Below are positions 552 to 61,852 of a stretch of DNA of 64,000 nt, piece after piece. Under the pieces are notes generated by a model that was not told the DNA's origin, did not search any database, and saw nothing but the letters and a program-made list of their open reading frames with translations. The stretch comes from Pasteurellaceae bacterium (lineage in GTDB: Bacteria > Pseudomonadota > Gammaproteobacteria > Enterobacterales > Pasteurellaceae): the NCBI GenBank assembly GCA_030527795.1, contig JAUNAB010000003.1, forward strand, positions 53,959 to 117,958, written 5' to 3'. The stretch's first letter is position 1; the number at the start of each line of letters is the position of its first letter. A program made the position numbers and the translations under genes.

Positions 552-595
552 AAAACCGCGGTTAAAAAAACGCGTGGATTTTTTACCGCGGTTTT
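552..595. terminator. Inverted USS-like pair (aaaaccgcggttaaaaaaacgcgtggattttttaccgcggtttt). It is an intercistronic hairpin between the substrate-binding-protein and permease genes.
   Basis: Inverted repeat with A/T-run flanks, seen directly in the sequence. Confidence 0.5.
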
Positions 596-602
596 GGCTC
601 AA

Positions 603-1406
603 TTATTGCTCTGGTGTAGTGATATCTTCACCATAGTATTTTTCAGATAAGGCTTTAATTGTGCCGTTTTGTTTGAGTTTAGTGAGGGCTTGATCAAATT
701 GCTCCCGTAGCTGTTGCCCACGAGCATTACGTGCAAATGGATAAGCTACAGCTTCCATCACTAAGGGTTTCCCGACTAATTTAAACGGCAGATTACTGCG
801 TTTCATTTCTGCTAACAAAATTGGTTTTGAATTGATATAGGCATCAACGCGTTTATAAACTAAATCGTACATCGCACCATCACGGGTTTCATAGGTTTTT
901 ATTGTGACTTCATTGTTCGGGAACACTTTTTTCAGAATATTCAAATGGTTTGAACCTAATACGCCAGAGATCATTTTACCTTTTAAATCGTTATAATCAC
1001 GAATATTTTCATTCTCATTGTGCGTAACAAGTTGACTACCATAATAGCTATAGGGTTGAGTGAAATCATATTTCGCTTTACGTGCTTCCGTTACCGCAAC
1101 GGCATTCGCAACGGTATCAAGACGTTCAGCATCAAGTTGCCCCATTAGCCCTGCAAATTCAATTGTTATCCATTCCACTTTATAGCCCAGTTCTTTGGCG
1201 ATGGCTTCGGTGGTTTCTACATCAAAACCCACTAATTTTCCATCTTGTTTAAACCCGTTTGGATAACCTTGCCCTGTGGAGCCGATATGTAGCACTTTTT
1301 CAGCTTGAGCTGAATTATCGGCGTTATTTGGTGCTTGCTTATCGCAAGCGGTTAAGATTGTCGTGATAAGTAATGCACTGATTAATGTGAGTTTTTTTAC
1401 GGTCAT
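603..1406 (-). CDS. Periplasmic amino-acid-binding lipoprotein (family 3 solute-binding protein) of an ABC transporter
   Basis: N-terminal signal peptide with lipobox LTAC. The translation resembles cystine/polar amino-acid binding proteins. Confidence 0.7.
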   Translation of the reverse strand: MTVKKLTLISALLITTILTACDKQAPNNADNSAQAEKVLHIGSTGQGYPNGFKQDGKLVGFDVETTEAIAKELGYKVEWITIEFAGLMGQLDAERLDTVANAVAVTEARKAKYDFTQPYSYYGSQLVTHNENENIRDYNDLKGKMISGVLGSNHLNILKKVFPNNEVTIKTYETRDGAMYDLVYKRVDAYINSKPILLAEMKRSNLPFKLVGKPLVMEAVAYPFARNARGQQLREQFDQALTKLKQNGTIKALSEKYYGEDITTPEQ

Positions 1407-1430
1407 AATGAGGTTCCTTCTTTTTAAATG

Positions 1431-1952
1431 TTAAGATGAATGTGTAAATTGCCACAGTTGAAATAACGCAGGATCTAAGATCTTGCGGTAATAAATTGTT
1501 GTGTGATCCGCGGTCAAATTTACGCGTGAAATTTCAGTAAATCCGTTCTTTTGATAAAACCTGTTGAGCCAAGGATGATTTTCCGCGGTGCCTAATGTCA
1601 CAAAAGGCAGATTAAACTGTGCAAGTAAAATATGCTGTTCTAGCCAAGTAAGCAGTTTTTTTGCCAAGCCTTGATGAGCAAAATCGGGATCCGTTGCAAA
1701 CCAGCCAATATGTGGCACGCCATAAGGTCCAGGATTGTTTCCCCAAGGCAAACGTAAACTAATGGTACAAATAGGGTTATCTTGTGCAAAAACTCCATAC
1801 ACTAAATTGGTTTGAATATGCTGTTCAATCAGTGCTAAATTGGCATCTGCAGCGGCAAAATAGATCCCCAATTTGACAACTGGGGCATAAGCTCGATGTA
1901 GCAATTGCTGATATGGCAGTTTGTCGCTTAAAGTAATACGGCGAATATGCAT
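1431..1952 (-). CDS. GNAT-family N-acetyltransferase
   Basis: 173 aa with a GNAT-like C-terminal motif (RFYQKNGFTEI). It sits 2 nt downstream of the lyase gene, so it is probably translationally coupled to it. Confidence 0.5.
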   Translation of the reverse strand: MHIRRITLSDKLPYQQLLHRAYAPVVKLGIYFAAADANLALIEQHIQTNLVYGVFAQDNPICTISLRLPWGNNPGPYGVPHIGWFATDPDFAHQGLAKKLLTWLEQHILLAQFNLPFVTLGTAENHPWLNRFYQKNGFTEISRVNLTADHTTIYYRKILDPALFQLWQFTHSS

Positions 1953-1954
1953 TG

Positions 1955-3319: not shown

Positions 3320-3483
3320 TACCTCAAATTAGATTATGTTTTAGTAAACTGTAGAAATTCTAAGAAGGTTTCTAATAGAAAACCAATAACCTTTTTGATT
3401 AATATATAGCTTTTTGGAATATATATTATTTTTGAGTGGATTTAGAGAATAAAAAATCGGAAAGAGAAAGATAAGAGATAAAT

Positions 3484-3512
3484 AAAAAACCCGACATAAG
3501 TCGGGTTTTTTT
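3484..3512 (-). terminator. Rho-independent terminator of the rpsF-priB-rpsR-rplI operon
   Basis: aaaaaacccgacataagtcgggttttttt: a GC stem followed by a T-run, directly after the rplI stop. Confidence 0.7.
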
Positions 3513-3523
3513 ACGAATAGAAA

Positions 3524-3973
3524 TTATTCAGCAACAACGATAACGTTTAATGATGCGAATACTTCACCGTGTAATTGGAATTTCACGTCGTGGTCGCCTA
3601 AGGTACGAATTGGACCTGTAGGTAAACGCACTTCGCTTTTTGAAATTTCAACACCTGCTTTAGTTACTGCATCGGCTACATCACGTGTAGTGATTGAACC
3701 GAATAAACGTCCTTCGTCACCTGCTTTAGACGCGATAGTTACGCTTTCTAATGCAGTAAGTTGTGCTGCACGAGCTTGAGCCGCAGCTAAAGATGCTGCA
3801 ACTTTTGCTTCTAATTCAGCACGACGTGCTTCAAAGTGTTCAATATTTGCTTTGGTTGCCATAACTGCTTTCCCTTGTGGGATTAAGAAGTTACGTGCGA
3901 AACCTGATTTTACATTCACTTGGTCACCAACGTTACCTAAGTGAACAATTTTGTCTAAAAGAATGATTTGCAT
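3524..3973 (-). CDS. rplI: 50S ribosomal protein L9
   Basis: [37 protein letters not shown] is a typical L9 N-terminus. Confidence 0.95.
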
Positions 3974-3989
3974 TACCGTATCTCCTTAA

Positions 3990-4229
<240 letters not shown>

Positions 4230-4577
4230 CTAATCTATAAATTCGATTTGCTCGGCGTGCAAAACTAATTGGCTTAAACCGTTAGAGGTTTTATGAGAAC
4301 TTAAAAAGCCCTGTACCAATAATTTACAACCGACCGTAATGCTTTGAGTTTTTTGCTTAAATTGATTGCCACTCATTTGTATTGGCATTTTACACCAAGC
4401 TTGGCGTGAAAATCCTGCTTCATTTTGTTCGGAACGATGTTCTAAATAGAATCGGCAGTGTGCAATACCATTTGGGCTTTGCGTGAATTTCGGCAAATCG
4501 GCAACAGTACCAATGAGCGAAACACGGTTATCAATGCGTAAATTACTCTTCAGCATCCTCAAAATCGTTGTTTTCAA
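4230..4577 (-). CDS. priB: Primosomal replication protein N (PriB)
   Basis: SSB-like fold sequence located between rpsF and rpsR, as in the conserved operon. Confidence 0.85.
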
Positions 4578-4920: not shown

Positions 4921-5059
4921 TACTGCTCCTTACGGGTTAATCAGCCTCCGACTGTTGATCCAACCACTGATCTGCGGAAGCAAGGAACGAAAATTAAATG
5001 TGGTTGCAAGGGGCGAATTATACAGGGGTTTGTGATGATACGCAATAAGAAATTATTGA

Positions 5060-5100
5060 AAACCGCGGTTGTAAATTAAGGCATTTTTTAGCCGCGGTTT
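5060..5100 (-). terminator. USS-like inverted pair downstream of argH (aaccgcggttgtaaattaaggcattttttagccgcggttt)
   Basis: Inverted repeat with a T-run. Another copy, gaccgcggtg, overlaps the argH stop codon. Confidence 0.5.
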
Positions 5101-5139: not shown

Positions 5140-6528
5140 TTAGACCGCGGTGTTGATGTTAAAACGCATTTTAGCCGCTTGAATCGCTTCAGCTACACGC
5201 AATGGCGAGACTCCGCCTTTTGCACAGCGTTTATCCAAACAAGATTGAAGCGATAAAATCGGATAAACGTCGTCATCAATGACATCGCTAAATTGGCGGA
5301 ATTCAGCCACGCTAAGATTTTCTAAACCTTTATGTACGCTGATCGCATAGACCACGGTTTCGCCAACAATGTGATGCGAATCACGGAATGGTACGCCTTT
5401 GGCAACGAGATAATCGGCTAATTCCGTTGCATTAGAATAGCCTTTTAAGGCAGCTTCGCGGGTGCGTTCAACATTGACTTTAATGTCTTCAAGCACAAAA
5501 CTTGCCATCGTTAAGCAGGCCTGCCAAGTATCGAGTGCATCAAAAATCCCTTCTTTGTCTTCTTGCATATCCTTGTTATAGGCAAGTGGTAAGCCTTTTA
5601 AAGTGATTAACATTCCTGTCAGTGAACCAATCACACGCCCTGCTTTACCGCGGATCAATTCGCAAGCGTCAGGGTTTTTCTTCTGTGGCATTAATGATGA
5701 ACCTGAGGTCACGCGGTCGGATAATTCCACAAAATCCGCTTCACCGCTATTAAAAATGATCATATCTTCTGCGAAACGGGATAAATGTGCCATACTGAGC
5801 GATGCGATGGAAAGCAGTTCAATAATATGATCGCGGTCGGATACGCTGTCTAAACTGTTATTTGTGGCACTGCTGAATCCGAGATCTTGAGCAAGCTTAT
5901 CGCGATCAATCGGGTATGCGGTACCTGCTAATGCACCACTGCCTAATGGGCAAGTGTTCATTCGTTGATAAGCATCTTGTAAACGGCTGTAATCGCGATT
6001 GAGCATTTCTACATAAGCCATACACCAATGAGCAAAACTAATGGGTTGTGCACGTTGTAAATGTGTATAACCTGGCATTACCGCATCTTGCGTATTTTCC
6101 GCGGTTTCTGTTAATTTGATTTGTAATTGGCGAATGCAGTTCTGTAATTCAAGGGCTTGTTCACGGCACCAAATTTTAATATCAACGGCGACTTGATCGT
6201 TACGGCTACGCCCAGTGTGTAATTTTTTACCTAAGTTGCCAACTTTGTCGATAAGTTTACTTTCTACCCAGCTATGAATATCTTCTGCATCATCTTGCAA
6301 AATACCTTGCGGATGCGAGCGTACTTCAAGGAGTAATTCATTGAGTGCTTGTTCAAGTTGTTGTTGTTCATCCTGTGTGAGTACGTTTACACTCACTAAT
6401 GCTTTAGACCAACCGATTGAGCCGATAATGTCTTGCTCAGCTAAGCGATAGTCAAAGCGTAATGAATCATTAAAGTCTTTAAATTTTTTGTCTGCCGCTT
6501 GTGTAAAGCGACCGCCCCAAAGTGCCAT
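5140..6528 (-). CDS. argH: Argininosuccinate lyase
   Basis: [29 protein letters not shown]... and the [11 protein letters not shown] signature. Confidence 0.95.
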
Positions 6529-8464: not shown

Positions 8465-9307
8465 ATGTGTCAATTATTGGGAATGAATTGCAATACGCCA
8501 ACGGATATTGTGTTTTCATTTGAAGGATTCCGACGGCGTGCGGGATTAACGGATAGTCATTCTGACGGTTTTGGTATTGCTTTTTTTGAAGGCAAGGGCG
8601 TGCGAGTGTTTCGTGATAATAAGGCTGCCCATTCTTCGCCGATTGCAGATTGCGTAAAGCAATATAAGATCAAATCCCTTAACGTGATTGCCCATATTCG
8701 CAAAGCGACTCAAGGTCTTGTAACCATTGAGAATACTCACCCTTTTATGCGTGAAATTTGGGGCGAAAATTGGGTTTTTGCTCATAATGGTAACCTAAAA
8801 TCTTTGCCTGATATGTCCGATAGCCTTTGCCAACCGATTGGTTCTACTGATTCCGAAACGGCATTTTGCTATATGGCGGAACAATTAAAAAATCATTTTC
8901 GTAAAAAGCCGAGCGAAGATCAAATTTTTGAGAAAATTCAACAGTTTGCACAAGGATTATCACAACGTGGCACCTTTAACTTTTTATTATCTAATGGCGA
9001 ATGGCTGATTGCACATTGTTCTACTAATTTACATTATGTGACACGCAAAGCCCCTTTTGGCTTGGCACAACGGGTTGACGATGATGGCGTAATTGATTTT
9101 AATGATTATGCCAAAGAAGGCGATAAAATTACTATTGTTTCAACCTTCCCCCTCACAAAAAATGAAAAGTGGACCAAAATGGAACACGGCGGGTTAGTGT
9201 TTTTCAAAGATGGCGATAAAATTAAGGAAATTATTGGAGAATACAAAGAAATGGAAGATGACGGTACACTTGGCGACGCTAAATTGGGTTCATTAGGGAC
9301 GAAATAA
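8465..9307 (+). CDS. yafJ: Class II (Ntn) glutamine amidotransferase, YafJ-like
   Basis: MCQLLGMNCNTPTDIVFSFEGF... has a Cys2 nucleophile and is similar along its length to E. coli YafJ. Confidence 0.8.
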   Translation: MCQLLGMNCNTPTDIVFSFEGFRRRAGLTDSHSDGFGIAFFEGKGVRVFRDNKAAHSSPIADCVKQYKIKSLNVIAHIRKATQGLVTIENTHPFMREIWGENWVFAHNGNLKSLPDMSDSLCQPIGSTDSETAFCYMAEQLKNHFRKKPSEDQIFEKIQQFAQGLSQRGTFNFLLSNGEWLIAHCSTNLHYVTRKAPFGLAQRVDDDGVIDFNDYAKEGDKITIVSTFPLTKNEKWTKMEHGGLVFFKDGDKIKEIIGEYKEMEDDGTLGDAKLGSLGTK

Positions 9308-9556
9308 TTTTTTCTTTTTTCTCAGGAAAACCGCGGTCAAAAATTTAAACGTTTTTTTGACCGCGGTTTTTTTATAACTTATTGCCAAAAGATGGCGACA
9401 AGATTCGGGAAATTATTGGTGAACATAAAGAAATGGAAGATGACGGTATACTTGGCGATGCTAAATTGGGTTCATTAGAGATGAAATAATTTTTCTTTTT
9501 TCTCAGGAAAACCGCGGTCAAAAATTTAGACGTTTTTTGACCGCAGTTTTTTATAA
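9196..9556. repeat. Tandem direct duplication of about 180 bp. It copies the last roughly 35 codons of yafJ, its stop codon and the USS-pair terminator. Copy 1 is about 9196-9377 and copy 2 about 9378-9556.
   Basis: The two copies are about 90% identical by eye (gatggcgataaaattaaggaaattattggagaatacaaagaaatggaagatgacggtacacttggcgacgctaaattgggttcattagggacgaaataa... against gatggcgacaagattcgggaaattattggtgaacataaagaaatggaagatgacggtatacttggcgatgctaaattgggttcattagagatgaaataa...). Each is followed by the pair aaaaccgcggtcaaaaattta(a/g)acgtttttttgaccgc(g/a)gtttttt. Confidence 0.85.
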
Positions 9557-9607
9557 TTTGTTGTAAAAATATGCAAAATTTTCTTGCTGAATCTTTACAG
9601 CATAACT

Positions 9608-11984: not shown

Positions 11985-11998
11985 CCCCACTTATCTTA

Positions 11999-12035
11999 AC
12001 CGCACTTGCTCAATACTGAAACAAGTGCGGTTTTA
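11999..12035 (+). terminator. Hin-type USS inverted pair (aaccgcacttg...caagtgcggtttt) between the receptor and ABC genes
   Basis: AAGTGCGGT core on both arms followed by a T-run. Confidence 0.6.
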
Positions 12036-12050: not shown

Positions 12051-13721
12051 ATGAACACCCTTTCTCAATTTATTCAATTAATTCGTCCTTATTGGTTACG
12101 CCCTAAACAGTGGTTGGCGTGGTTGCTCTTGTTCGGTACTTTGAGTGCGAGCTTGGCGATTGTGCAAATTAGTGTGTTAATTAATGAATGGAATAAAGCC
12201 TTTTATGATGCCTTGACTGCTTTTCAAACTGAACTTATTTTGCCATTAATGTGGCAATATTTGGGCTATATTGCCATTGTGGTGTTATTGATTACCGCGG
12301 GCAATTGGTTGCGTAAATTATTGCTTATCCGTTGGCGTACCCATTTAACCCGTGAGCTAGAACAGCAATGGCTAGTTCGGCATCGTTTATATGGCATAGC
12401 AAAACAGCAGATTGTAGATAACCCCGATCAACGTATTACACAAGATAGCTATTTGTTAGCGGAGAAAAGTATTGATTTGGTGAAATACTTTTGTATGAAC
12501 GTGGCGAAGATCATCGCATTCGTGGGGATTTTATGGCAACTTTCAGGTATTCAGCACATTCAATTGGGCGGTATTGAATTGACAATTCAGGGCTATTTAG
12601 TTTGGTTAGCATTGATTTACACAGCAATTTGTAGCTTATTAACCCATGGTATTGGGCGTAAATTAAAGCCGTTAAATGTTGAGAAAGAGAAAGCCGAAGC
12701 AACCTATCGGAGTAGTTTAATTCGCATTAATGATAACGCAGAGCAAATTGCGTTTTATGATGGAGAGAAAACGGAGCAACAACGTTTGATTGCCCATTTC
12801 AACCACATTGTACGCAACTGGCACGCCTTAATGGCACGGGAGTTTAAGTTGGAATCCTTTAGTGCCGCCTATTTACGCATTACGATGCTCATTCCAGTTT
12901 TTGCTGTATTGCCATTGTATTTAATCAAAGCGATTACCTTTGGGGCAATGATGCAAGCCCGCTCGGCATTTAGTTCGGTGCAAGATGGATTTGGTTGGTT
13001 TATGGATTTTTATAAACAGATTATGGAATGGGCGGCGGCGGTGCAACGATTGAGTGAATTTAAACAATCCCTTAATGCGTTAACGAAAAATGAAAACGCG
13101 ATCATTCAGCAGGGGCAACAGTTACAATGTGAGCAGGTGCAAGCCTATTTATCGCCTACACAACCTCTATTTCAGCCCGTAAATTTACGTTTAATGCCAG
13201 GGCAATGGTTACAGTTGCAAGGGGATAGTGGCGTGGGGAAAAGCACCTTTTTGCGAATTTTAGCTGGACTATGGCAAGATTATCAAGGAACAGTTATTTT
13301 ACCCGTGGGCAAAATATGCTTTGTTCCGCAAAAAGCCTATTTAGCCAAAGATCGTTTGGCAAATGTGTTGTGCTATCCGCAAACCGCGGTCAAAAATGCT
13401 GCCGTTTTTTGCCGTATTTTGACCGCGGTAGGCTTGCCACATTTAATTGATGAACTTGAACAAGAAAAAGATTGGGGGCAAGTTTTATCTGGGGGAGAGC
13501 AACAACGCATTGCCTTTGCTCGTTTGTTACTCAATCAGCCCGATTTTATTTGTATGGATGAAAGCACTAATCAGCTTGATATTTTATCGGCACGTTATTT
13601 GTTAAACTTACTACGCCAAATGCTGCCAAATTGCACCTTGATTGCGATTACACATCAACCTGAGTTGAACGAACTCTTTGAGCAACAAGTAGAATTAATA
13701 AAAATCAGCGAAGGGACGTGA
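12051..13721 (+). CDS. Fused permease-ATPase ABC transporter of the YddA/SbmA-BacA family
   Basis: N-terminal multi-TM SbmA-like domain, Walker A GDSGVGKST and ABC signature LSGGEQQRIAFARLL. Being adjacent to a TonB receptor mirrors E. coli yddA-yddB. Confidence 0.75.
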   Translation: MNTLSQFIQLIRPYWLRPKQWLAWLLLFGTLSASLAIVQISVLINEWNKAFYDALTAFQTELILPLMWQYLGYIAIVVLLITAGNWLRKLLLIRWRTHLTRELEQQWLVRHRLYGIAKQQIVDNPDQRITQDSYLLAEKSIDLVKYFCMNVAKIIAFVGILWQLSGIQHIQLGGIELTIQGYLVWLALIYTAICSLLTHGIGRKLKPLNVEKEKAEATYRSSLIRINDNAEQIAFYDGEKTEQQRLIAHFNHIVRNWHALMAREFKLESFSAAYLRITMLIPVFAVLPLYLIKAITFGAMMQARSAFSSVQDGFGWFMDFYKQIMEWAAAVQRLSEFKQSLNALTKNENAIIQQGQQLQCEQVQAYLSPTQPLFQPVNLRLMPGQWLQLQGDSGVGKSTFLRILAGLWQDYQGTVILPVGKICFVPQKAYLAKDRLANVLCYPQTAVKNAAVFCRILTAVGLPHLIDELEQEKDWGQVLSGGEQQRIAFARLLLNQPDFICMDESTNQLDILSARYLLNLLRQMLPNCTLIAITHQPELNELFEQQVELIKISEGT

Positions 13722-15305: not shown

Positions 15306-15352
15306 TAAAAAACCGCGGTCAAAAAAACGTTTGAATTTTTGACCGCGGTTTT
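15306..15352. terminator. Bidirectional USS-like pair terminator between convergent fklB and oapB
   Basis: aaaaaaccgcggtcaaaaaaacgtttgaatttttgaccgcggtttt. Confidence 0.65.
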
Positions 15353-17263: not shown

Positions 17264-17367
17264 GATATACCTCTAAACTAAGCGATTTAACTGATTAAAC
17301 CGCGGTTGAAAATAACGTGATTTTTGACCGCGGTTGGACTAAAAATTTCAAGGGCGAAAAATTGCCA

Positions 17368-20701: not shown

Positions 20702-20717
20702 TTAAAAAACAAAGGAA

Positions 20718-20757
20718 TTTTAGACCGCGGTTTTGGGGATAAACCGCGGTCTAAAAT
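20718..20757. terminator. USS-like inverted pair (ttttagaccgcggttttggggataaaccgcggtctaaaat), bidirectional
   Basis: Inverted repeat lying between convergent genes. Confidence 0.55.
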
Positions 20758-20789
20758 TTATAATTATGTTTGTATAAAAATCTATGGTA

Positions 20790-21650
20790 TTAAAACAGTT
20801 CTAATGCTTTTGCGACAATATCTTGCGCTGTGAGTTGATAAGTTTTCATCAGAAAATCTAACGTGCCAACTTGCCCATAATGCCCGTTAATTCCTATTCG
20901 ACGCATTGGGGTTGGACAGTTTTCAGCTAAAACTTCAGCGACAGCAGAACCTAATCCATTCTGGATACTGTGGTTTTCACAAGTGATAATCCGACCTGTG
21001 CGTTTTGCATAATCAATAACACATTGAGTATCCAGTGGTTTTAATGTGAACATATCAATGACTGTAGCATCAATGCCTTGCTTGGATAGGATTTCTGCAG
21101 CATTTAATGCTTCTGCCACCATAATGCCATTAGCTATTAACGTTATGTCCTTGCCTTCGCGTAATATTTTTGCTTTACCAATAGTGAATTGTTCATTTTC
21201 GTCATAAATTTTAACTGCATTTTTTCGGATCATACGAATCCAGTAAAAACCCTTTAAGGTAACTAACTGAGGAATCAATTTTCTCATCATTGTGCCATCG
21301 GTAATTTCTAACACATTTGAGTGAGTTAGACCACGGACAATTCCCATATCTTCAAAAGACATATGTGTGCCACCATTGTGTAATGCGGTTACCCCCGCAT
21401 CTGAAGCAATAACTTTTACATTATTTGCTTGGTAATCAACCGACATAAATAATTGGTCCAAACAGCGACGACTCGCAAAGGCAGAAAAAGAATGGAAAAA
21501 AGGGATATGCCCTGCAAGTGATAAACCAGAAGCCATTCCAACGACATTTGCTTCCATTATTCCACAATTAATTACTTGATTTGGCAATAATTTCTGAACT
21601 TTATCCATTGTGACACAACTCATTAAATCAGCATCAAGTTCAATCACCAA
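20790..21650 (-). CDS. Transketolase, C-terminal (pyrimidine-binding) subunit of a split transketolase
   Basis: The translation carries transketolase Pyr and C-terminal domain motifs (GIMEANVVGMASGLS...). Confidence 0.8.
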   Translation of the reverse strand: MVIELDADLMSCVTMDKVQKLLPNQVINCGIMEANVVGMASGLSLAGHIPFFHSFSAFASRRCLDQLFMSVDYQANNVKVIASDAGVTALHNGGTHMSFEDMGIVRGLTHSNVLEITDGTMMRKLIPQLVTLKGFYWIRMIRKNAVKIYDENEQFTIGKAKILREGKDITLIANGIMVAEALNAAEILSKQGIDATVIDMFTLKPLDTQCVIDYAKRTGRIITCENHSIQNGLGSAVAEVLAENCPTPMRRIGINGHYGQVGTLDFLMKTYQLTAQDIVAKALELF

Positions 21651-21713
21651 TGGGTTTTCTCCATTTCTTTTTGTAAGCTCTCAGCGTAAATCTGGCGTAA
21701 CTCTTTTTCATCT

Positions 21714-22541
21714 TTACTCAACATATTTTGCCTCCAATTTATTCATTGCTTGTTCAATTTCTACAAGACTTTGTTGATTAAGCCGTAAATGATGGCAATT
21801 TTTTTGTGCTTCTAAGTAGTCTATACCTTGTCCTTTCTTAGAATGTAAGATCACAACTAATGGCATGTTTTGTTGCCGAGAAGATAGTGTGGAAACTAAT
21901 TTCCCTATATCTGTTGCTTGTACTTCTGCTACTTGAAATCCGAAAGCAGTAAATTTTGCATTAAGATCAAATGGATTAATAATGTCAACAAGATCGCCAT
22001 CAAGTTGCTGTTTGTTATAATCAATAATAATAGTTAGGTTAGTTAATTTCCGATGTGCAATAAATTGGAATGCTTCCCAACATTGCCCTTCATTAAGCTC
22101 GCCATTGCCGGCAATACAAAAAGTCCTATTTGGCATTGAGCGTAATTGGTGTGAAAGTGCTATTCCTGCGGCTATTGATATTCCTTGTCCAAGAGAACCT
22201 GTTGTCGCATCAATACCATTCGTTTTAAGTCTATCAGGGTGACTAGGTAGTGATGTGCCATTTTGATTAAGTGTCAATAGCTGTTCAACTGGAAAGAATC
22301 CTTTTAGAGCAAGTGTAGCATAGAGAGCAGGGCCTCCATGCCCTTTTGATAGTACAAAATAATCTCTCTCTTTCCATTATGCGTTATTTGGGTCAATGTT
22401 CATTACTTTGCCATATAACACTGCAAGAACTTCAACAATGGATAAACTTCCACCAAAATGACCGAAACCAAGGTGAACCAAGGATTTGAGAGTGTGTATC
22501 CGAATATCATTAGCAAATTTTTCTAAATATAAATATTGCAT
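21714..22541 (-). pseudogene. Transketolase N-terminal (TPP-binding) subunit gene interrupted by an in-frame TAA at 22377-22379
   Basis: ATG at 22539-22541 gives MQYLYLEKFANDIRIHTLKSLVHLGFGHFGGSLSIVEVLAVLYGKVMNIDPNNA, then TAA. The same frame continues WKERDYFVLSKGHGGPALYATLALKGF... into the ORF-track fragment 21714..22277. Together they give the expected N-subunit of about 276 aa. Confidence 0.7.
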
Positions 22542-22552
22542 AGTCGTTAACC

Positions 22553-23901
22553 CTAGTTTGATTGAACTGGTTTTTTTGTATAGTTATAAACAACAAGGAG
22601 TGCAAAAATCGCAATTATAATCCCCATAATGACATCTTTAGATAAGTATTGTGCCATATAACCAAGTACAATACCTACTCCACCAAAATCGGCATCAGAG
22701 AATGTAGTGTTAGCAAAACCGAGATGTCCAAGTACAGGAAGCAAAAAGACTGGGAGAAATGTAATTAGTAACCCATGTGCAAATGCACCGATCATTGCTC
22801 CACGACGTACGCCCGTTGCATTACCAAATACTCCAGCTGTGGCGCCGCAGAAGAAGTGCGGGGCAACTCCCAGTAGAATAAGTACCCAATTTAATTGACC
22901 TAGCAAAGCTAATCCTACAATTCCACCAACAAAGCTCGCGAGGAAACCTACTAATACTGCATTTGGTGCGTAAGGGAATACGATTGGGCAGTCTAATGCT
23001 GGTTTTGCATCGGGAACTAATTTTTCTGAAATTCCAGTAAAGGCAGGGACAATTTCAGCTAAAATTAAGCGTACGCCTTGTAAAATAATAAACACACCGG
23101 CGGCAAAAGTAATAGCTTGAATAAGAGCAAAGACAAGATAATTTTGACCGTTACTCAGACTTTCAACATAAGTTTGCCCTGAAGCAATGGCGAGAACAAA
23201 ATAAATGATCATCATTGTGATTGATATGGATACGGAACTATCACGTAAGAAACTAAGATTTTTAGGTAGATCCATTTCCTCTGTTGATTTTGAATTTTTC
23301 CCAACAACTTGTCCAATTACCGCGGACAAAATATAACCTAATGTACCAAAATGGCCGAAAGCAACATCATTACTACCCGTTACTTTTGCCATATAACGAT
23401 GAATAATGGCGGGGAAAAATGCCATAACTAAACCTAAAGTAAGCGAGCCAACAAAAACAAGTTGTACGCCTTCAAATCCAATGACAGTAAGAATAATACC
23501 AATCATACAAGCCATATAAAATGTATGATGGCCCGTTAAAAAGATATATTTTAAGCGAGTAAAGCGGGCAATAATAATATTAGCAAGCATTCCAAATGCC
23601 ATAATGAGAACCGTAGCTGTACCATATTTCTCAATTGCCATTGAAACGATAGCCTCATTGTTTGGAATGATACCCTGAACATTAAATGCATGTTCAAACA
23701 TACCTCCAAGTGGATTTAGTGAACCAACTAATACACCTGCACCACCGCCTAAAACAATAAAGCCTAAAATAGTTTTGATTGTTCCTTTTATTACGTCAGG
23801 TAATGGTTTTTTTGTAATAACAAACCTATTAAGGCGATTAAGCCAACTAAAACAGAAGGAACTTTTAAAATATCAAGAATAAAGAAAAGGAATGTGTTCA
23901 T
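22553..23901 (-). pseudogene. PTS ascorbate-family IIC permease (UlaA/SgaT-like) with a -1 frameshift in a poly-A(7) run (top-strand T7 at 23807-23813)
   Basis: ATG at 23899-23901 gives MNTFLFFILDILKVPSVLVGLIALIGLLLQK, which then terminates. With 8 A's the frame would continue KPLPDVIKGTIKTILGF...GGMFEHAF, matching UlaA (IIKGTIKTIIGF) and joining ORF 22553..23701. Confidence 0.65.
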
Positions 23902-25507: not shown

Positions 25508-27976
25508 ATGATAAAAAGTGTTATGACAAATAAGAGAATAAAGAAAAAGCAAAAAACATTAACCGAATTACACGATCCCAATTATCAACAAGAACTGCAA
25601 AAATACGACAATCCTGTCCCTAGCCGCGAATTTATCTTAAAAATTATCCGCGAACATAACGCACCAATGTCACGTCAAGATATTACTCAATATTTTGCTA
25701 TTAATGATGAAGACCGTTTGGAAGCAATGCGTCGTCGTTTGCGGGCAATGGAAAATGATGGACAGCTGGTTTTTACGAAACGTAAGTGTTATGCCTTGCC
25801 TGAGAAGTTGGATTTGATTAAAGGTACAGTCATTGGTCATCGCGATGGATATGGTTTTTTGCAAGTAGAAGGCAAAGTTTCAGAGAAAAATGAAGATTGG
25901 TTTATTCCGAATAACCAAATGCAACGCGTAATGCACGGTGATTTTGTGTTAGCTCAAGCGAGCGGTATTGATCGCAAAGGGCGGCGTGAAGTGCGGATTG
26001 TTCGGGCGTTGGAAAATCGGAAAAAGCAGTTGGTTGGTCGTTTCTTTTTGGAAGAAGGGATTGGCTATGTGGTGCCTGATGATAGCCGAATAAGCCGTGA
26101 TATTTTAATTCCAAATGAATACCGATTGGGCGCACGAATGGGGCAAGTTGTGGTGGTGGAACTGAAACCACGCAATGCAACCTTTAGCCAACCTGTGGGT
26201 ATGATTACGGAAATTTTGGGCGATAATATGGCACAGGGAATGGAAGTTGAAATCGCTTTGCGGAATTATGATATTCCGCACACATTTCCTGATGCGGTGC
26301 AAAAATATGTAAAACGTTTTAGTGAAGATGTTCCAGAACAAGCTAAAGTGGGGCGAGTAGATTTACGTCAATTACCTTTAATGACCATTGATGGCGAAGA
26401 TGCACGTGATTTTGATGATGCGATACATTGCCGTGCTGAAAATGGCGGTTGGCGATTGTGGGTTGCGATTGCGGATGTGAGTTATTATGTGCGTTTACAT
26501 AGCGCCCTTGATAGTGAAGCTCATTCACGGGGAAATTCGGTTTATTTTCCAAATCGTGTGGTGCCAATGTTACCAGAGGTTTTATCTAACGGTTTATGTT
26601 CGTTAAATCCGCAGGTAGATCGTTTGTGTATGGTTTGTGAAATGCAAATTTCAAGCGACGGGGTGATGCAAGATTACCAATTTTATGAAGCAGTAATGAA
26701 CTCACACGCCCGTTTAACTTACACCAAAGTTGCTCAAATCTTAGCGGATGATGAACAACTTAAGCAACGTTATAATGGATTAGTTCCGCATTTGCGTGAA
26801 TTACATACACTTTATCAAGCATTGCTCAATGCACGTCACCAACGTGGTGCGATTGATTTTGAAACCATCGAGAGCAAATTTGTGTTTAACACAATGGGGC
26901 GGATTGAACGCATTGAACCTGTGGTGCGTAACGATGCACACCGCATTATTGAAGAATGTATGATCTTAGCCAATATCGCCGCAGCACGTTTTGTTGAAAA
27001 ACACAATGAGCCAGCGTTATATCGTATTCACGCGATGCCGAATGAAGAAAAATTAACCTCATTCCGTGCATTTTTAAGTGAATGTGGGTTAAGTTTAGGG
27101 GGCGGTCATAAACCAACCACTAAGGATTATGCTGAACTGTTAGACAAAGTGCGTTTACGCCCTGATCACGAATTAATTAAAACAATGTTGCTACGTTCTT
27201 TGAGTCAAGCCGTATATAGCCCTGATAATATTGGGCATTTTGGCTTGGCGTTAAGTGAATATGCACATTTTACCTCGCCTATTCGCCGTTATCCTGATTT
27301 AACCTTGCACCGTTCAATTAAATATTTGCTTGCGAAAGAACAGGGGGCAAAACGCAAAACCACCGATGGCGGTGGGTATCATTACAGCTTGGACGAAATG
27401 GATTTACTTGGCGATCATTGTTCGCAAACGGAACGCCGAGCTGACGAGGCTACGCGAGATGTGGCGGATTGGCTAAAATGTGAATTTATGCAAGATCAAG
27501 TGGGGAATGAATTTAGCGGCGTGATTTCATCGGTAACGGGCTTTGGATTATTCGTCCGTTTAGATGATTTATTTATTGACGGTTTAGTGCATATTTCAAA
27601 TTTAGCCAATGATTATTATCAATTTGATGTTGCTAAACAGCGTCTAATTGGCGAGAACAGCGGAATGGTTTATCGGTTGGGCGATAAGGTAAATATCCGT
27701 GTTGTAGCAGTGAGCTTAGAACAGCGTCAACTTGATTTTGCGTTAATTGGCAGTGAACGTCAGCCTCGTCGAGTGGGAAAAACGCAAAAGAATAAAGCAA
27801 AAGCCCAAACAAAAGCGGATAGCAAAAAAACGAAGGCAAAAAAGACCGCGGTTTCGACGAGAAGAAAGAAAACCGCGGTCAAAAAAAGCGTTGAATTTCA
27901 AGAAAAAGCACCCAAAGCCAAGCAATCAAAACGCGGTAAAAGCGAGAATCAAAAAACTAAAAAGAGAACAAAATGA
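25508..27976 (+). CDS. rnr: Ribonuclease R
   Basis: HTH, cold-shock, RNB and S1 domains, then a C-terminal Lys-rich tail. The start could instead be the downstream ATG at 25523. Confidence 0.9.
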
Positions 27977-34317: not shown

Positions 34318-34358
34318 ACCACGGTCAAAATTTCGTTCGTTTTTTTGAGCGCGGTTTT
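34317..34358 (+). terminator. Degenerate USS-like pair terminator (aaccacggtcaaaatttcgttcgtttttttgagcgcggtttt)
   Basis: Inverted repeat with a T-run after ubiI. Confidence 0.55.
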
Positions 34359-35170: not shown

Positions 35171-35210
35171 GTTACCGCGGTCAAAATTTAACGCGTTTTT
35201 GACCGCGGTA
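35171..35210. terminator. Bidirectional USS-like pair (ttaccgcggtcaaaatttaacgcgtttttgaccgcggtaa)
   Basis: Lies between the convergent pirin gene and deoD. Confidence 0.6.
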
Positions 35211-35217
35211 ATGGGGA

Positions 35218-37436: not shown

Positions 37437-39491
37437 TTATTTAACTCGATCGCCTGCTTTTGCACCTTGATCCACATCTAATAAGAAAAGATCTGAACCG
37501 CCCGTTCCTGCGGATAAAATCATCCCTTCCGATAGACCAAATTTCATTTTGCGTGGAGCGAGATTAGCCACAACAATCACATTACGCCCGATCAATTTTT
37601 CAGGTTCAGGGTACGCCGCTTTAATTCCCGAAAAAACTTGGCGAGTTTCATTACCTAAATCTAAGATAAATTTTAACAATTTATTGCTTTCAGGTACGGC
37701 TTCGCAACTAATCACTTTTGCGATGCGTAAATCCAATTTAGCAAATTCATCAATGCTAATTTCAGGTTCAATAGGTTCAATTTCTGCATCAGAAACAACG
37801 TTATTTTTGACCGCGGTATTACTCTGATTTTGGCTAATTTGGGCATTTTCAGCTTTGGAGGCTTCAATCATTGTGTCAATTTGTTTGCTATCAAGGCGAT
37901 TAAATAAGGCTTTAAATGGTGCGATTGAGTGAGCAAGAAGCGGATGAGTTAAATTATCCCAAGTCAATTCACTTTGTAAGAACGCTTCTGCACGTTCAGC
38001 AAGTTGCGGTAATACAGGTTTTAAGTAGCCCATTAATACGCGGAATAATTGAATACCCATTGAGCAAACACGTTGTAATTCATCCTCTTTCCCTTCTTGT
38101 TTAGCCAATACCCAAGGGGCTTTATCATCAATATATTTATTGGCTTTGTCGGTCAATGCCATAATATCACGCACCGCTTTGCCGAATTCACGATTTTCGT
38201 AATATTGTGCGATTTGTTCTGCTTGAGCAGTAAATTCATTAAATAGAGCTGAGTCATCTAATTCTGCTGAAAGTTTGCCGTCAAAACGTTTTTGGATAAA
38301 CCCTGCATTACGTGATGCGAGATTGACTAATTTATTGACAATATCCGTATTGACACGTTGGACAAAATCATCAAGATTTAAATCTAAATCATCAATTTTA
38401 TGGCTTAATTTTGCCGCATAATAGTAACGTAAGCATTCAGGATCGAGATGTTTTAAATAAGTCGCCGCTTGAATGAATGTGCCACGGGATTTTGACATTT
38501 TCTCGCCATTAACAGTAACATAGCCGTGAACAAACACATTGGTTGGTTTGCGAAGTGATGCTCCGTCTAACATTGCAGGCCAAAATAAGCTGTGGAAATA
38601 CATAATATCTTTACCGATAAAATGATAAAGCTCCGTTGGGCTTTCTTTTTGCCAGAAGTGGTTAAAGTCAATGTCGCCACGTTTGTTACATAAATTTTTA
38701 AACGATGCCATATAACCGATAGGTGCATCAAGCCAAACATAAAAATATTTATTCGGTTGATCGGGAATTTCAAAACCAAAATAAGGGGCATCACGGGAAA
38801 TATCCCATTGTTGCAAGCCAGCTTCAAACCATTCTTGCATTTTATTTGCCACTTCTGTTTGCAAACTGCCTGAACGAATCCACTCTTTTAACATTGGTTC
38901 AAAGGTCGGCAAATCAAAAAAGAAATGTTCACTTTCTTTGAGAATTGGCGTTGCCCCCGATACCGCGGATCGTGGGTTAATCAATTCCATTGGGCTATAT
39001 GTTGCGGCACAGACTTCACAGTTGTCACCGTACTGATCAGGTGCTTTACATTTTGGACAAGTGCCTTTGACGAAACGATCGGGTAAAAACATCCCTTTTT
39101 CTGGATCGTAGAGTTGTGAAATGGTTCGGCTTTTGATAAACCCATTGGTTTTTAATTGGCGATAAATTGCTTGAGAAAGTTCCAAATTTTCTGTGCTGTG
39201 CGTGGAATGATAATTATCAAAGCTGATATTAAATCCACGGAAATCTGCATAATGGCTTTGTTGCACTTCGGCGATAAGTTGCTCTGGTGTGATGCCCATT
39301 TGATCGGCTTTAAGCATAATGGGCGTGCCGTGCGCATCATCCGCACAGACAAAATAAATTTCATTGCCACGCATACGTTGAAAGCGTACCCAAATATCGG
39401 CTTGAATATGTTCGAGCATATGCCCTAAGTGGATTGGACCATTGGCATAGGGTAACGCACAGGTAACCAAAATTTGACGTGAATGAGACAT
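37437..39491 (-). CDS. metG: Methionyl-tRNA synthetase
   Basis: HIGH motif ([14 protein letters not shown]), KMSKS and a C-terminal EMAP/tRNA-binding domain. A terminator hairpin aaaaggggcataatgcccctttttc lies at about 37398-37424. Confidence 0.95.
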
Positions 39492-40818: not shown

Positions 40819-40841
40819 AGGGAAGTGAGCCGATTGTTCTC

Positions 40842-40883
40842 AACCCGCGGTCAAAAAATTCAGCGTTTTTTTGACCGCGGTAA
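40842..40883 (+). terminator. USS-like pair terminator after apbC
   Basis: aacccgcggtcaaaaaattcagcgtttttttgaccgcggtaa. Confidence 0.6.
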
Positions 40884-40973
40884 GCGGTATTTATCCCATT
40901 TTCTGCTATAAATTGGCAGCAAAATAAGCTATAATCAAGGAATATTGTATTATCATTATTTTAAGGAATTAGC

Positions 40974-42242: not shown

Positions 42243-42313
42243 TACTGCACGTTTGGAATGAAGGATTATCCAATAACCGCGTTTTACCGCGGTTATTTTT
42301 TTGAGAGTTTTTT

Positions 42314-49201: not shown

Positions 49202-49218
49202 AACGCCCATTTTTTCAT

Positions 49219-49267
49219 AAAACCGCGGTCAAAAATTCAATCGTTTTTTTGACCGCGGTTTTTTTAT
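49219..49267. terminator. Bidirectional USS-like pair (aaaaccgcggtcaaaaattcaatcgtttttttgaccgcggttttttt)
   Basis: Lies between convergent hpt and ypfJ. Confidence 0.65.
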
Positions 49268-50690: not shown

Positions 50691-50700
50691 TAATTTAACG

Positions 50701-50747
50701 AAAACCGCGGTCAAAAAAGCTTTTGAAATTTTGACCGCGTTTTTTTT
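50701..50747 (+). terminator. USS-like pair terminator (aaaaccgcggtcaaaaaagcttttgaaattttgaccgcgttttttt)
   Basis: Inverted repeat with a T-run. Confidence 0.6.
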
Positions 50748-54198: not shown

Positions 54199-54232
54199 AA
54201 AAACCGCGGTCAAAAAAGACCGCGGTTTTTCT
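54199..54232 (+). terminator. USS-like pair terminator after clpX (aaaaaaccgcggtcaaaaaagaccgcggtttttc)
   Basis: Inverted repeat. Confidence 0.6.
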
Positions 54233-55176: not shown

Positions 55177-55220
55177 AAAACCGCGGATCAAAATTCAATC
55201 ATTTTTTGACCGCGGTTTAA
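55177..55220. terminator. USS-like pair (aaaaccgcggatcaaaattcaatcattttttgaccgcggttt)
   Basis: Inverted repeat lying between the pe start region and the ffh end. Confidence 0.55.
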
Positions 55221-57565: not shown

Positions 57566-57629
57566 GCAAAAAACCGCTCAAACCACGGTCAAAAATAAGG
57601 CTGTTTTTTATAAACAGCCCCTAATCAGA

Positions 57630-58439: not shown

Positions 58440-58620
58440 AATTTTTCCTTATCTAAAAATGACACAATTATAAGTTTTTTATACTACTATTTCGTAAAAT
58501 TTAATTAATAATCCACAAAAGCTTTTCAGAAATGTGATCTAGTGCAACTTTTTTTCTAATTTAGGATGTTACTATACTTGCAACAGAGATAAGTTGAATT
58601 GATATAATAAGGAGCAGATT

Positions 58621-59046
58621 ATGTATAGACATGTGTTAGTTGCAATTGATCTTTCCGATGAAAGTTCAGTTTTACTCGATAAAGCTGTTCGTATAGCAAA
58701 ACGAAACGACGCAAAATTATCAATTATTCATGTAGATGTCAATTTTTCTGATCTTTATACAGGATTAATTGATGTGAATATGGCATCAATGCAAGATCGT
58801 ATTTCAACGGAAACCCAACAAGCATTAATTCAACTAGCTGAAACAGCAGGATACCCTGTAACTGAGAAACTCAGTGGAAGTGGCGATTTAGGTCAAGTAC
58901 TCTCTGATGCAATAGAACAATATGATGTAGATCTATTGGTAACGGGTCATCATCAAGATTTTTGGAGTAAATTGATGTCATCTACTCGTCAAGTTATGAA
59001 TACGATAACGATTGATATGTTAGTTGTACCGTTACGTGATGAATAA
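58621..59046 (+). CDS. uspA: Universal stress protein A
   Basis: Collinear with E. coli UspA (HILVAIDLS...[10 protein letters not shown]...[12 protein letters not shown]). Confidence 0.9.
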
Positions 59047-59076
59047 TTAAGCACTCAAAAAAATACTCAACTCTTT

Positions 59077-59114
59077 ACCGCACTTTTCATTGAGGAAAAT
59101 GGAAGTGCGGTTTT
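59077..59114 (+). terminator. Hin-type USS inverted pair terminator (taccgcacttttcattgaggaaaatggaagtgcggtttt)
   Basis: AAGTGCGGT core on both arms plus a T-run. Confidence 0.6.
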
Positions 59115-59227
59115 ACTTTTTATTTACGAATAATTGAATTAATTCAGCAAAAACTCGTTCTATAAAAGGCAAAAATATGTAACAATAGGACGGTATATTA
59201 TGAGAAATATAAACACAAGGTTTATTA

Positions 59228-61852
59228 ATGAAAACAACAGCTGAAATCAGACAGTCATTTTTAGATTTTTTTCATAGTAAAGGACATCAAATTGTCGCAA
59301 GTAGTTCACTTGTTCCAAATAATGATCCGACATTACTTTTTACAAATGCAGGAATGAATCAATTTAAAGATGTCTTTTTGGGAATAGATAAGCGCCCCTA
59401 TACGCGTGCAACAACCGCACAGCGTTGTGTACGAGCAGGCGGAAAGCATAACGATTTAGAAAATGTTGGTTATACTGCTCGCCATCATACTTTTTTTGAA
59501 ATGTTAGGTAACTTTAGTTTCGGGGATTATTTTAAACAAGATGCCATTCATTTTGCTTGGGAATATTTAACCTCATCGGCTTGGCTAGGCTTACCAAAAG
59601 AAAAACTTTGGGTTACCGTATATGAAACCGATGATGAAGCCTACAATATTTGGCATAATGAAATTGGTATCCCTAAAGAGCGGATTATTCGCATTGGCGA
59701 TAATAAAGGTTCAGCATACGCGTCAGATAACTTTTGGCAAATGGGTGATACGGGTCCATGTGGTCCTTGTACTGAAATATTCTACGATCATGGCGAGCAT
59801 ATTTGGGGAGGACCTCCAGGATCAGCAGAAGAAGATGGCGATCGCTATATTGAAATCTGGAATATCGTATTTATGCAATTCAATCGCCAATCTGATGGTA
59901 AAATGGAAAAATTACCAAAACCATCCGTTGATACAGGGATGGGATTAGAGCGTATTAGTGCAGTATTACAACATGTTAACTCTAACTACGATATTGATAT
60001 TTTTAAAAAATTAATCGCCAAAGCAAGTGAATTGACAGGCGAGAAAGATTTAACTAACAAATCTTTACGCGTAATTTCCGATCATATTCGTTCTTGTGCT
60101 TATTTAATCGCAGATGGAGTTATTCCTTCGAATGAAGGTCGCGGTTATGTATTAAGACGAATTATTCGTCGTGCTGTTAGACATGGGCATTTACTTGGAG
60201 CAAAAGAAACATTTTTCTATAAGTTAGTACCGACTCTCATTGATGTGATGGCAGAAGCGGGTCAAGAAATAAAAGAAAAACAAGCCAATGTAGAAAAACT
60301 CCTACGATTAGAAGAAGAACAATTTGCTCGCACCTTAGAACGTGGACTTGCACTATTAGATGACGAATTAGCCAGACTCAATAATAATCAACTTTCTGGC
60401 GAAATTATCTTTAAACTTTACGATACCTACGGTTTCCCGTTCGATTTGACCGCGGATGTTTGCCGTGAGCGCAATATTGATGTTGATGAAAATGGGTTTA
60501 ATCGTGAAATGGAACGCCAACGCACGCGGGCACAATCTGCAAGTCAATTTGGTATGGACTATAGTAATGTGATTCGTGTTGATGGTGCAACTAGCTTTAA
60601 CGGTTATACAAACACTGATGGCGAAGCGAAAGTCATCGCACTTTTCACTGATGGTATTTCAGTAGATCAAATTCATGCAGGTCAAAATGCGATTGTTATC
60701 TTGGATAATACTCCATTTTACGCAGAATCAGGGGGGCAAATTGGAGATAGTGGAGTCATTACAACAAACAGTATGACATTCACTGTCAATGATACACAAA
60801 AATATGGACAAATATTTGGCCATATTGGCGAATTAGTACAAGGAACTTTATCTGTTGGTCAAACAGTTAATACGGTTGTTGATGTTCAACGTCGTCAGAA
60901 AATATCCTTAAATCATAGTGCTACACATTTATTACATGCTGCTTTACGTCAAGTATTAGGAGATCATGTGGCACAGAAAGGATCATTAGTGAACGATCGT
61001 GCATTACGTTTTGACTTTGTTCAACATGAAGCTATTAGCAAGGCACAACTTGCTGAGATAGAACGTATAGTTAATTTCCATATTCGTGCCAACCACCCTA
61101 TCGTGACAGAAATAATGGAAATTGAAGCAGCTAAGGCAAAAGGAGCGATGGCATTATTTGGTGAAAAATATGGTGATACGGTACGTGTCGTTACTATGAG
61201 TGAGTTTTCTATCGAACTTTGTGGCGGTATTCACTCTCAACGTACAGGTGATATCGGATTATTTAAAATTGTATCAGAAAGTGCAGTTGCCTCAGGTATT
61301 CGTCGTGTCGAAGCCATGACAGGAGCGCAGGCTATCGAGCAAATTCAATATCAACAACATATTTTACAGCAAAGTGCAGATGTATTGAAATCAGAACCGT
61401 ATTTCTTGGTAGAGAAAATCCAACAATTACAAGAAAAATCGAAAAAAACTGAAAAAGAATTGCAACAGCTGAAAGAAAAGATCGCAATGGAAGCTGGTTC
61501 TAAACTCGCACAAACCGCGGAAAAAATTGGAAGTGTTTCTGTGATTGTGCAACAACTTGATGGCGTTGAAACAAAAGCATTACGAATAATAGTTGATGAT
61601 CTTAAAAACCAATTAGATTCAGCAGTTATTGCTTTTGCTTCTGCTATCGATGATAAAGTAAATTTAATTGTTGGTGTTACAAGCAATCTAACTTCAAAAG
61701 TGAAAGCTGGCGAGTTAGTAAATTTGATGGCACAGCAAGTTGGTGGCAAAGGCGGCGGACGTCCAGATATGGCGATGGCTGGTGGTTCTGAGCCAGAAAA
61801 CTTGCAAAATGCTTTAAACGCTTGTAATGAGTGGCTAAAAGCAAATTTATAA
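59228..61852 (+). CDS. alaS: Alanyl-tRNA synthetase
   Basis: 874 aa of class II aaRS. Confidence 0.95.

Follow-up and report, generated by a model that had tools for sequence, protein, structure and literature searches.

A probable third dialect of the DNA uptake signal sequence in an uncultured lineage of the Pasteurellaceae

The DNA analysed here, a stretch of 64,000 nucleotides from contig JAUNAB010000003.1 of an uncultured member of the Pasteurellaceae (hereafter the window), carries genes such as argH, rnr, pepP, metG, apbC, clpX and alaS, together with a short repeat built on the palindrome ACCGCGGT that recurs both within and between genes. The repeat was compared with the uptake signal sequences (USSs) of this family, of which, to our knowledge, the Hin type (AAGTGCGGT) and the Apl type (ACAAGCGGT) have for two decades been the only ones recognised. 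The initial annotation of the window had proposed an undescribed USS dialect of shifted uptake specificity. This proposal is supported by the enrichment of the motif, by the architecture of its flanks and by its placement in terminator-like pairs and variable coding segments. Further support comes from its absence from 57 loci of other Pasteurellaceae, from the replacement of Hin-type USSs at orthologous sites, from possible Hin-type relics and from an intact set of pilABCD genes.

Abundance and architecture of the repeat

The 8-mer ACCGCGGT is a perfect palindrome, as had been noted before, and occurs 33 times in the window, where dinucleotide-preserving shuffles predict 0.58 copies (0 of 100 shuffles reached 33). 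Its inner hexamer CCGCGG occurs 62 times against an expectation of 7.47 +/- 2.4, which bears out the earlier claim that the repeat lies far above what base composition predicts. The 7-mer ACCGCGG/CCGCGGT is carried by 57 of the 62 sites, and thus the earlier estimate of roughly 40 to 45 core copies was right as to abundance and too low as a count. Comparison of all 256 palindromic 8-mers gave 2 copies for the next GC-rich one, so that a frequency shared with palindromic 8-mers in general, which would have spoken against a USS, is not found within the window. The ACCGCGGT family also ranks at the top of the strand-collapsed 7- to 12-mers.

The 33 perfect 8-mers compare with 41 one-mismatch copies that are spread over 24 possible sequences, an excess of perfect copies beyond chance; a high ratio of perfect to mismatched copies is a hallmark of USSs (PMC1626085). 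The density in the window, about 1 CCGCGG per kb (0.97) and about 0.5 full cores per kb, falls in the range of about 0.3 to 1 copy per kb of one short motif that characterises USSs in the Pasteurellaceae, the family to which the host belongs. Over the portion of this species' genome that was covered, about 82 kb, 39 full cores were counted.

Orienting each copy by its 3' flank gives aaaACCGCGGTCAAAAA-N6-R-TTTTT as the consensus. The new dialect can be written AACCGCGGT-CAAAAA, where AACCGCGGT (26 copies in the window) is the 9-bp core in the USS register; the forms AAACCGCGGTCAAAAA, ACCGCGGTC and AAACCGCGGTCAAAAATnnnnnGTTTTT denote the same motif. Read as A-ACC-GCGGT, the core fits the USS template of the family with its inner GCGG kept, and this GCGG is invariant in the global consensus ANNNGCGGT (PMC1626085, PMC12616744).

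Position-weight matrices were built from 245 Hin-type and 74 Apl-type USSs taken from the DNA of relatives. The register of the new motif, core-n-R-WWWWW-N6-R-WWWWW, is the same as that of the 245 Hin-type USSs, with both AT-rich tracts in phase; these tracts lie 3' of the core, roughly one helical turn from each other. The Apl-type matrix has another distal segment, aaaatTTTgCAaa, and the new motif lacks TTTTGCAAA and has a T-run in its place. The matrices agree with how both types, and the consensus that covers them, have been described in print (PMC1626085). The initial annotation had placed the motif closest to the Apl type. This is unsupported, because AACCGCGGT in register is 2 changes away from Hin AAGTGCGGT and 3 away from Apl ACAAGCGGT. 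It is further countered by the Hin-type T-run of the distal tract, by GCGGTCAAA, which is also frequent behind Hin cores, and by the grouping of the host's MetG with Hin-type taxa.

The unpaired copies, which are mostly genic, have a purine at position +20 in 14 of 15 cases and a distal W-tract (at least 4 of 5 positions A/T) in 9 of 15 (binomial P about 0.05). Since unpaired copies also keep this tract, it is not merely the second arm of a pair. The oriented copies divide into 15 on the plus and 18 on the minus strand, so that the check for orientation bias that had been proposed reveals none within the window.

Inverted pairs and copies within genes

About 13 inverted pairs were found, with a modal core-to-core spacing of 28-30 bp. 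Most lie 10-80 nt past stop codons, in agreement with the earlier description of pairs just downstream of stops, and several lie between convergent genes. Direct RNA folding of 13 pairs gave -14 to -31 kcal/mol, with z from -3.3 to -8.3. It was used in place of a simple terminator scan, which recognises only 3 pairs, as it allows loops of no more than 8 nt and so disregards the A/T extensions of the stems. The features expected of a terminator, namely a stable GC-containing hairpin, a U-run and a position soon after the stop, are all present. The pairs are therefore plausible rho-independent, often bidirectional, terminators, a termination activity that we infer from their sequence and position. 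The pairs, decayed pairs and a related hairpin are as follows.

550-595: inverted pair after the gene for an amino-acid ABC binding protein (minus strand, stop codon at 603); -22.9 kcal/mol, z -4.8
5058-5100: inverted pair after argH (minus strand), second arm GCCGCGG; -14.2 kcal/mol, z -5.0
9325-9373: perfect inverted pair 24 nt past the stop of a yafJ-like amidotransferase gene, followed by a U-run; -27.4 kcal/mol, z -6.7
9505-9550: second copy of the yafJ-like pair, in a 182-bp tandem duplication, distal arm decayed to GACCGCAG
15307-15352: inverted pair where fklB and a lipoprotein gene converge; -24.3 kcal/mol, z -5.3
17296-17337: inverted pair after epmB (minus strand); -16.7 kcal/mol, z -4.3
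20716-20758: pair with the reverse arm before the forward one, between convergent sulfatase-family and transketolase-C genes; -28.3 kcal/mol, z -8.0; 18-pair stem in the terminator scan
34313-34358: pair at the stop of ubiF, decayed (AACCACGGTCAAAA...TTTTTGAGCGCGGTTTT)
35172-35212: inverted pair where the pirin gene and deoD converge; -26.3 kcal/mol, z -4.1
40841-40884: inverted pair 27 nt past the apbC/mrp stop; -23.5 kcal/mol, z -4.2
42272-42297, plus strand: hairpin on one core (AACCGCG-TTTTA-CCGCGGTT) with a T-run, after lpxA
49217-49264: perfect inverted pair between convergent hpt and ypfJ; -25.9 kcal/mol, z -8.3
50699-50744: pair with a decayed distal arm (GACCGCGTTTT), after a BON/LysM gene
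54199-54230: tight inverted pair 30 nt past the clpX stop; 13 pairs in the terminator scan; -22.3 kcal/mol, z -7.3
55177-55219: inverted pair after ffh (minus strand); -18.2 kcal/mol, z -4.4

A further decayed arm lies at 57580. The tandem duplication (9206-9387 and 9388-9568, about 89% identical) spans the 3' end of the yafJ-like gene and its motif-pair terminator, and the strain of run SRR24915843 (L091) apparently has a single copy of the 182-bp unit. Transketolase-like (N and C halves) and ulaA-like phosphotransferase-system genes are broken in the window strain (20790-23701). Compared with the strain of SRR28250216 (L085), the window has 1-nt deletions at 21655 and 23807 as well as single-nucleotide differences, and the open reading frames there measure 286, 187 and 382 aa against 311, 275 and 449 aa in L085. 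These genes are either real pseudogenes or the product of homopolymer errors.

When all CCGCGG sites are considered, 36 of the 62 (58%) are genic and 26 are intergenic, the latter in a non-coding share that makes up about 13% of the window by our own gene list. Among the 33 strong copies, those with a good TCAAAAA flank, 22 are intergenic. The earlier statement that most copies are paired after stop codons thus holds for the strong copies and not for CCGCGG sites as a whole. The in-frame coding copies that it also reported are confirmed by the 36 genic sites, and a motif confined to intergenic hairpins, which would have argued against a USS, is not what the window contains. The preferred genic frame is xCC GCG Gxx (phase 1), with the full core ACC GCG GTC read as T-A-V. 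Genic copies occupy variable segments, namely the MetG linker, the tail of RNase R, the low-complexity region of OapA and a loop of PilB. The paired genic copies and the single copies are listed below.

165-182: single copy with TCAA on either side
5141-5165, minus strand: single oriented copy overlapping the argH stop (ACC GCG GTC TAA), with a distal R+TTTTT tract
13381-13431: inverted pair inside an SbmA/BacA-like ABC transporter gene, in frame (PQTAVKNAAVFCRILTAVG); hairpin of -30.6 kcal/mol
27842-27886: two copies (cores 27846 and 27873) in the Lys-rich C-terminal tail of RNase R (rnr)
30965-30990, minus strand: single oriented copy (core 30977) inside pepP (NLTAVYYA), with a distal A+TTTTT tract
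37790-37826, minus strand: single oriented copy (core 37811) in the variable linker of metG (N-T-A-V-K-N), which protein and DNA alignments show to be orthologous to a Hin-type USS (K-S-A-V) of relatives
44221: single copy in an SLC13-type transporter gene
60450: single copy in alaS

The positions given in the initial annotation (13381-13430, those in rnr, pepP and metG, 44220, 60447 and the Hin-type pairs) are all correct, and an extra copy at 169 lies beyond the range it gave. The pair with cores at 13384 and 13423 falls within an intact ABC_tran domain, of which residues 375-507 match the whole profile. In RNase R the copies sit at residues about 779 and 788, and the S1 domain ends at residue 744. 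The last codons of argH and its stop come from the motif at 5141-5150, and a separate pair lies 43-77 nt further downstream.

Source lineage, replaced Hin-type sequences and the pil locus

The proteins of the window match exactly those of the NCBI metagenome-assembled genome (MAG) 'Pasteurellaceae bacterium' (MDO4626173-MDO4626220), to which a search of protein clusters led. An exact search with MetG returned no entry, whereas ClpP, EF-P, ManB and the binding protein led to the source in Logan assemblies. Logan assemblies of run SRR24915844 are 100% identical to the window, and five other sequencing runs contain strains 99.6-99.7% identical to it in which every motif core is conserved. An assembly artefact was rejected on these grounds, given that independent assemblies from six runs agree at 99.6-100% identity. 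A search of 5.8 billion protein clusters returned no MetG between 84% and 100% identity to that of the window, which indicates a lineage isolated at roughly the genus level; several of the organism's proteins also fall in clusters that hold this species alone at the 90% level. The source is probably an undescribed genus. The best MetG matches come from Avibacterium, [Pasteurella] aerogenes, Caviibacterium, Canicola, Histophilus and strain 22721_9_1, and a single-gene neighbour-joining tree of MetG places the MAG among these taxa and away from the Apl-type group. All of the best-match taxa that were sampled, a set that leaves out [P.] aerogenes, are Hin-type.

The 22-kb metG loci of 55 other Pasteurellaceae (1.07 Mb in total) served as the comparison set. 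In these loci ACCGCGGT has 0 copies, and CCGCGG occurs at 0.05 per kb compared with 0.97 here. Each of the 55 genomes is clearly Hin- or Apl-type, the sampled Hin-type loci having 0.7-1.0 Hin-type USSs per kb, and the two nearest relatives (84% MetG identity) are Hin-type. Scanned for pairs of the motif, metagenome contigs of the Joint Genome Institute (JGI) yielded 3 matches, all of them single hairpins in unrelated DNA of 62-67% GC, and no second organism with the new dialect. Viral contigs gave 0 pair matches and 27 single-copy chance matches to a 15-mer, and hence no phage signal.

Sites that hold Hin-type USSs in relatives are filled by the new motif here. The variable linker of metG reads AAAAGTGCGGT (K-S-A-V) in Caviibacterium, Avibacterium, Aggregatibacter, Histophilus and Canicola, and AATACCGCGGT (N-T-A-V) in the same register in the window, with flanks nearly identical to those of Canicola (...AAAATAACGxxGTTTCTGA). 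Because the register is the same as that of the relatives' Hin-type USS and the flanks are conserved, the metG copy is, judging from these alignments, a Hin-type USS that substitutions have converted where it stood. The position downstream of apbC is taken by a Hin-type pair in Aggregatibacter and H. parainfluenzae and by a CCGCGG pair in the window. Most relatives have K-C-G in the variable loop of PilB, and in 22721_9_1, the closest relative, this is a Hin-type USS at the DNA level; here Q-C-N stands at the K-C-G position and a perfect motif of the new type lies 6 nt downstream. In the leader of PilA (L124, 2344-2400; L122, 6001-6030), the closest relative has a reverse Hin-type USS, AACCGCACTTC, read N-R-T-S, and many other relatives have N-R-T-S or a near variant, while the leader of this species has CCGCGG (F-A-R-G) immediately ahead of FTLIEL.

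The Hin-type core is not dominant in the window, where AAGTGCGGT has 4 copies (2 pairs) against 26 of AACCGCGGT and 33 of ACCGCGGT. The Apl core ACAAGCGGT has a single copy, which is the chance level, and the window does not qualify as Apl-type. The initial annotation had reported only two Hin-type pairs, at 11999-12035 and 59077-59114, and both were found.

11996-12034: intact Hin-type inverted pair (ACCGCACTT...AAGTGCGGT with a T-run; cores 11999 and 12023) after a TonB-dependent receptor gene
59074-59114: intact Hin-type inverted pair (ACCGCACTT...AAGTGCGGT with a T-run; cores 59077 and 59103) after uspA

These pairs apparently serve to terminate the TonB-dependent receptor gene and uspA, and are relics of the ancestral dialect or else came in with imported DNA.

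The pil locus of this species was reached by way of H. influenzae PilA, the pil operon of 22721_9_1 and the homologues of PilB. The same two samples (SRR24915843/44) contain an ampD-pilA-pilB-pilC-pilD-coaE locus in which pilA, pilB, pilC and pilD are intact (148, 470, 409 and 232 aa), and thus the species encodes the core of a competence type IV pilus. The locus has 3 perfect AAAACCGCGGTCAAAAA motifs with the distal tract, and 0 Hin-type and 0 Apl-type USSs. Upstream of pilA lies TTTTTTACGATCATCATTCCAAAA (L124, about 2236-2260), positioned as TTTTGTGATGTTAATTCCAAAAA is in 22721_9_1. A CRP/CRP-S site belonging to the competence regulon is one possible reading; the match is weak and was not counted as evidence. 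A search for the CRP-S pattern across the window gave nothing useful, and a regular-expression search of the window and of the 55 relatives' loci found no prepilin genes. Directly next to ampD-pilABCD stand hsdM, which encodes a type I restriction-modification methylase, and a gene of the rhuM family (L123, 477-3044).

Interpretation and comparison with known systems

Enrichment, architecture, placement, lineage restriction, conversion at orthologous sites and the presence of pilABCD were all observed here; an actual uptake preference and the identity of the receptor are inferred. The explanation in which we place considerable confidence is that of a third Pasteurellaceae USS dialect, which would have arisen from the Hin type when receptor specificity changed and have spread by biased uptake and recombination, and whose pairs would act secondarily as terminators. 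In such a scheme, a surface receptor associated with the type IV pilus of the competent cell would bind double-stranded DNA bearing the motif, with its main contact at the inner GCGG(T), and the AT tracts would help the DNA to bend into the secretin. Motif-bearing fragments would be preferentially taken up and recombined, and through this biased uptake the motif would accumulate genome-wide ('molecular drive').

The swap of dialects was most likely caused by an uptake machinery that now recognises a different sequence. In an ancestor with Hin-type USSs, receptor specificity would have been altered at core positions 3-4 (GT to CC), and the older Hin-type USSs would then have been converted in place or replaced nearby, leaving few relics. 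As a secondary use, head-to-head pairs would form hairpins with U-runs and serve as rho-independent, often bidirectional, terminators. That this amounts to a natural switch of USS-receptor specificity inside the Hin subclade, towards a perfectly palindromic core (ACCGCGGT), is a proposition for which we see the case as evenly balanced. The perfect palindrome makes GCGGT identical on both strands, and any copy would therefore be valid in either orientation.

Several points weigh against the interpretation as a USS dialect. The source organism is an uncultured MAG, whose uptake preference is deduced from its DNA; the evidence is drawn from about 82 kb of genome; pilABCD are the only competence genes found so far; and the dialect is known from one lineage, without independent replication across species. 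The motif could also be a fossil of past competence, and the modal spacing of 28-30 bp and the somewhat similar loops could also fit a small mobile palindromic unit. If the copies were fossils, of uptake origin and kept as terminators and neutral codons after competence was lost, then decayed arms such as those at 9505-9550, 34313-34358, 50699-50744 and 57580 would be expected, and the broken tkt-like and ulaA-like genes hint at some gene decay. Many USS-rich Pasteurellaceae strains are, moreover, poorly transformable. However, perfect cores (33, against 41 with one mismatch) exceed what decay would leave, no core varies between strains with differences at about 0.3% of sites, and pilA, pilB, pilC and pilD are intact and themselves carry perfect motifs, which makes this explanation unlikely.

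A lineage-specific palindrome of about 46 bp, akin to repetitive extragenic palindromes and their mosaic elements (REP/BIME) or to miniature inverted-repeat transposable elements (MITEs), could have spread by transposition or gene conversion and supplied terminators with no role in uptake. The modal spacing of the roughly 13 pairs, their similar loops (TTCAATCG, TTCAGCG, TTTAAACG) and the presence of one pair inside the 182-bp duplication that is polymorphic between strains would fit such an element. Yet the 36 genic sites are in-frame half-sites apart from one full pair, most single copies retain the oriented 30-bp USS architecture, and the metG copy arose from point substitutions in an older Hin-type USS and not by insertion. 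The spacing is also that of two overlapping extended USSs, because each has a distal T-tract that doubles as the proximal A-tract of its partner. No resemblance between copies extends past the motif, where terminal repeats, target duplications and common flanks are all lacking, and none of the marks of a mobile palindrome (confinement to extragenic DNA, unit boundaries and shared internal sequence) is found. We therefore regard a mobile element as quite improbable. Hardly credible is a target of another CCGCGG-specific protein, whether a SacII-type restriction-modification system, a regulator or a nucleoid protein. The core is indeed a perfect palindrome of 6-8 bp identical to the SacII site, and hsdM stands beside the pil locus, although type I sites are bipartite. 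Restriction sites are usually avoided, and here the hexamer is enriched about 20-fold over its density in relatives (0.05 per kb versus 0.97). Moreover, the asymmetric 3' extension (TCAAAAA-N6-R-TTTTT) in the Hin-type register has no counterpart in such targets, and about 1 copy per kb with intragenic copies is unlike operator sites. A restriction site or operator was rejected, as it offers no mechanism of enrichment and leaves the asymmetric flanks unexplained.

Two surveys from 2025, of 150 and 177 complete genomes, describe two Pasteurellaceae USS dialects only (PMC12616744; bioRxiv 10.1101/2025.10.24.684340). A search of open-access full text found no description of the present motif as a USS, the matches being primers and unrelated constructs. 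If the interpretation as a USS dialect is correct, uptake specificity can shift within Hin-type taxa, and not only at the deep divergence of the Hin and Apl subclades. The window and its relatives would then offer a site-by-site view of how old USSs are converted or replaced, which bears on the model of molecular drive. A barrier to DNA exchange with neighbouring Pasteurellaceae in the same host would be predicted. We know of no experimental proof of the USS receptor, for which ComN/PpdA is a candidate, and a natural variant of specificity would be useful for identifying it. Because the nearest relatives (84% MetG identity) are still Hin-type, comparing surface and minor-pilin proteins with theirs could point to the residues, and thereby to the protein, that read core positions 3-4.

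Among known systems, the Hin-type USS (Haemophilus, Aggregatibacter, Pasteurella, Histophilus and Avibacterium) shares with the new motif the inner GCGGT and the preceding A-run, the n-R-WWWWW-N6-R-(T-rich) flanks in identical register, a density of about 0.5-1 per kb without strand bias, and the use of terminator pairs and variable coding segments. The same sites are filled, in metG and downstream of apbC, and the host's MetG groups with that of Hin-type taxa. The new motif differs in having CC and not GT at core positions 3-4, which makes ACCGCGGT a perfect palindrome with GCGGT on both strands. Its proximal tract is almost pure A (TCAAAAA), its coding frame gives T-A-V where the Hin type gives S-A-V, T-A-L or K-C-G, and its pairs are mostly forward-then-reverse. 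The Apl-type USS (Actinobacillus pleuropneumoniae, Mannheimia and Glaesserella) is likewise a dialect of ANNNGCGGT, with GCGGT often followed by C, and has been shown experimentally to alter uptake preference (PMC1626085). It has 3 core mismatches to the new motif and a distal segment, AAAATTTTGCAAAT, that the latter lacks, and the new motif's host lies outside the Apl subclade.

The DNA uptake sequences (DUSs) of the Neisseriaceae, with 8-11 described variants around a CTG core, likewise form lineage-specific variants with an invariant inner core that follow phylogeny and often stand as pairs in terminators (PMC12616744; bioRxiv 10.1101/2025.10.24.684340). In contrast to the present motif, they have an unrelated sequence, the receptor ComP and no phased AT tracts. 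Enterobacterial REP/BIME elements are also short palindromes with a GC core that occur in large numbers after genes and can fold into hairpins. They are, however, strictly extragenic and mobilised by RAYT transposases, whereas more than half of the copies of the new motif are genic and in frame, and its single half-sites keep the oriented 30-bp architecture.

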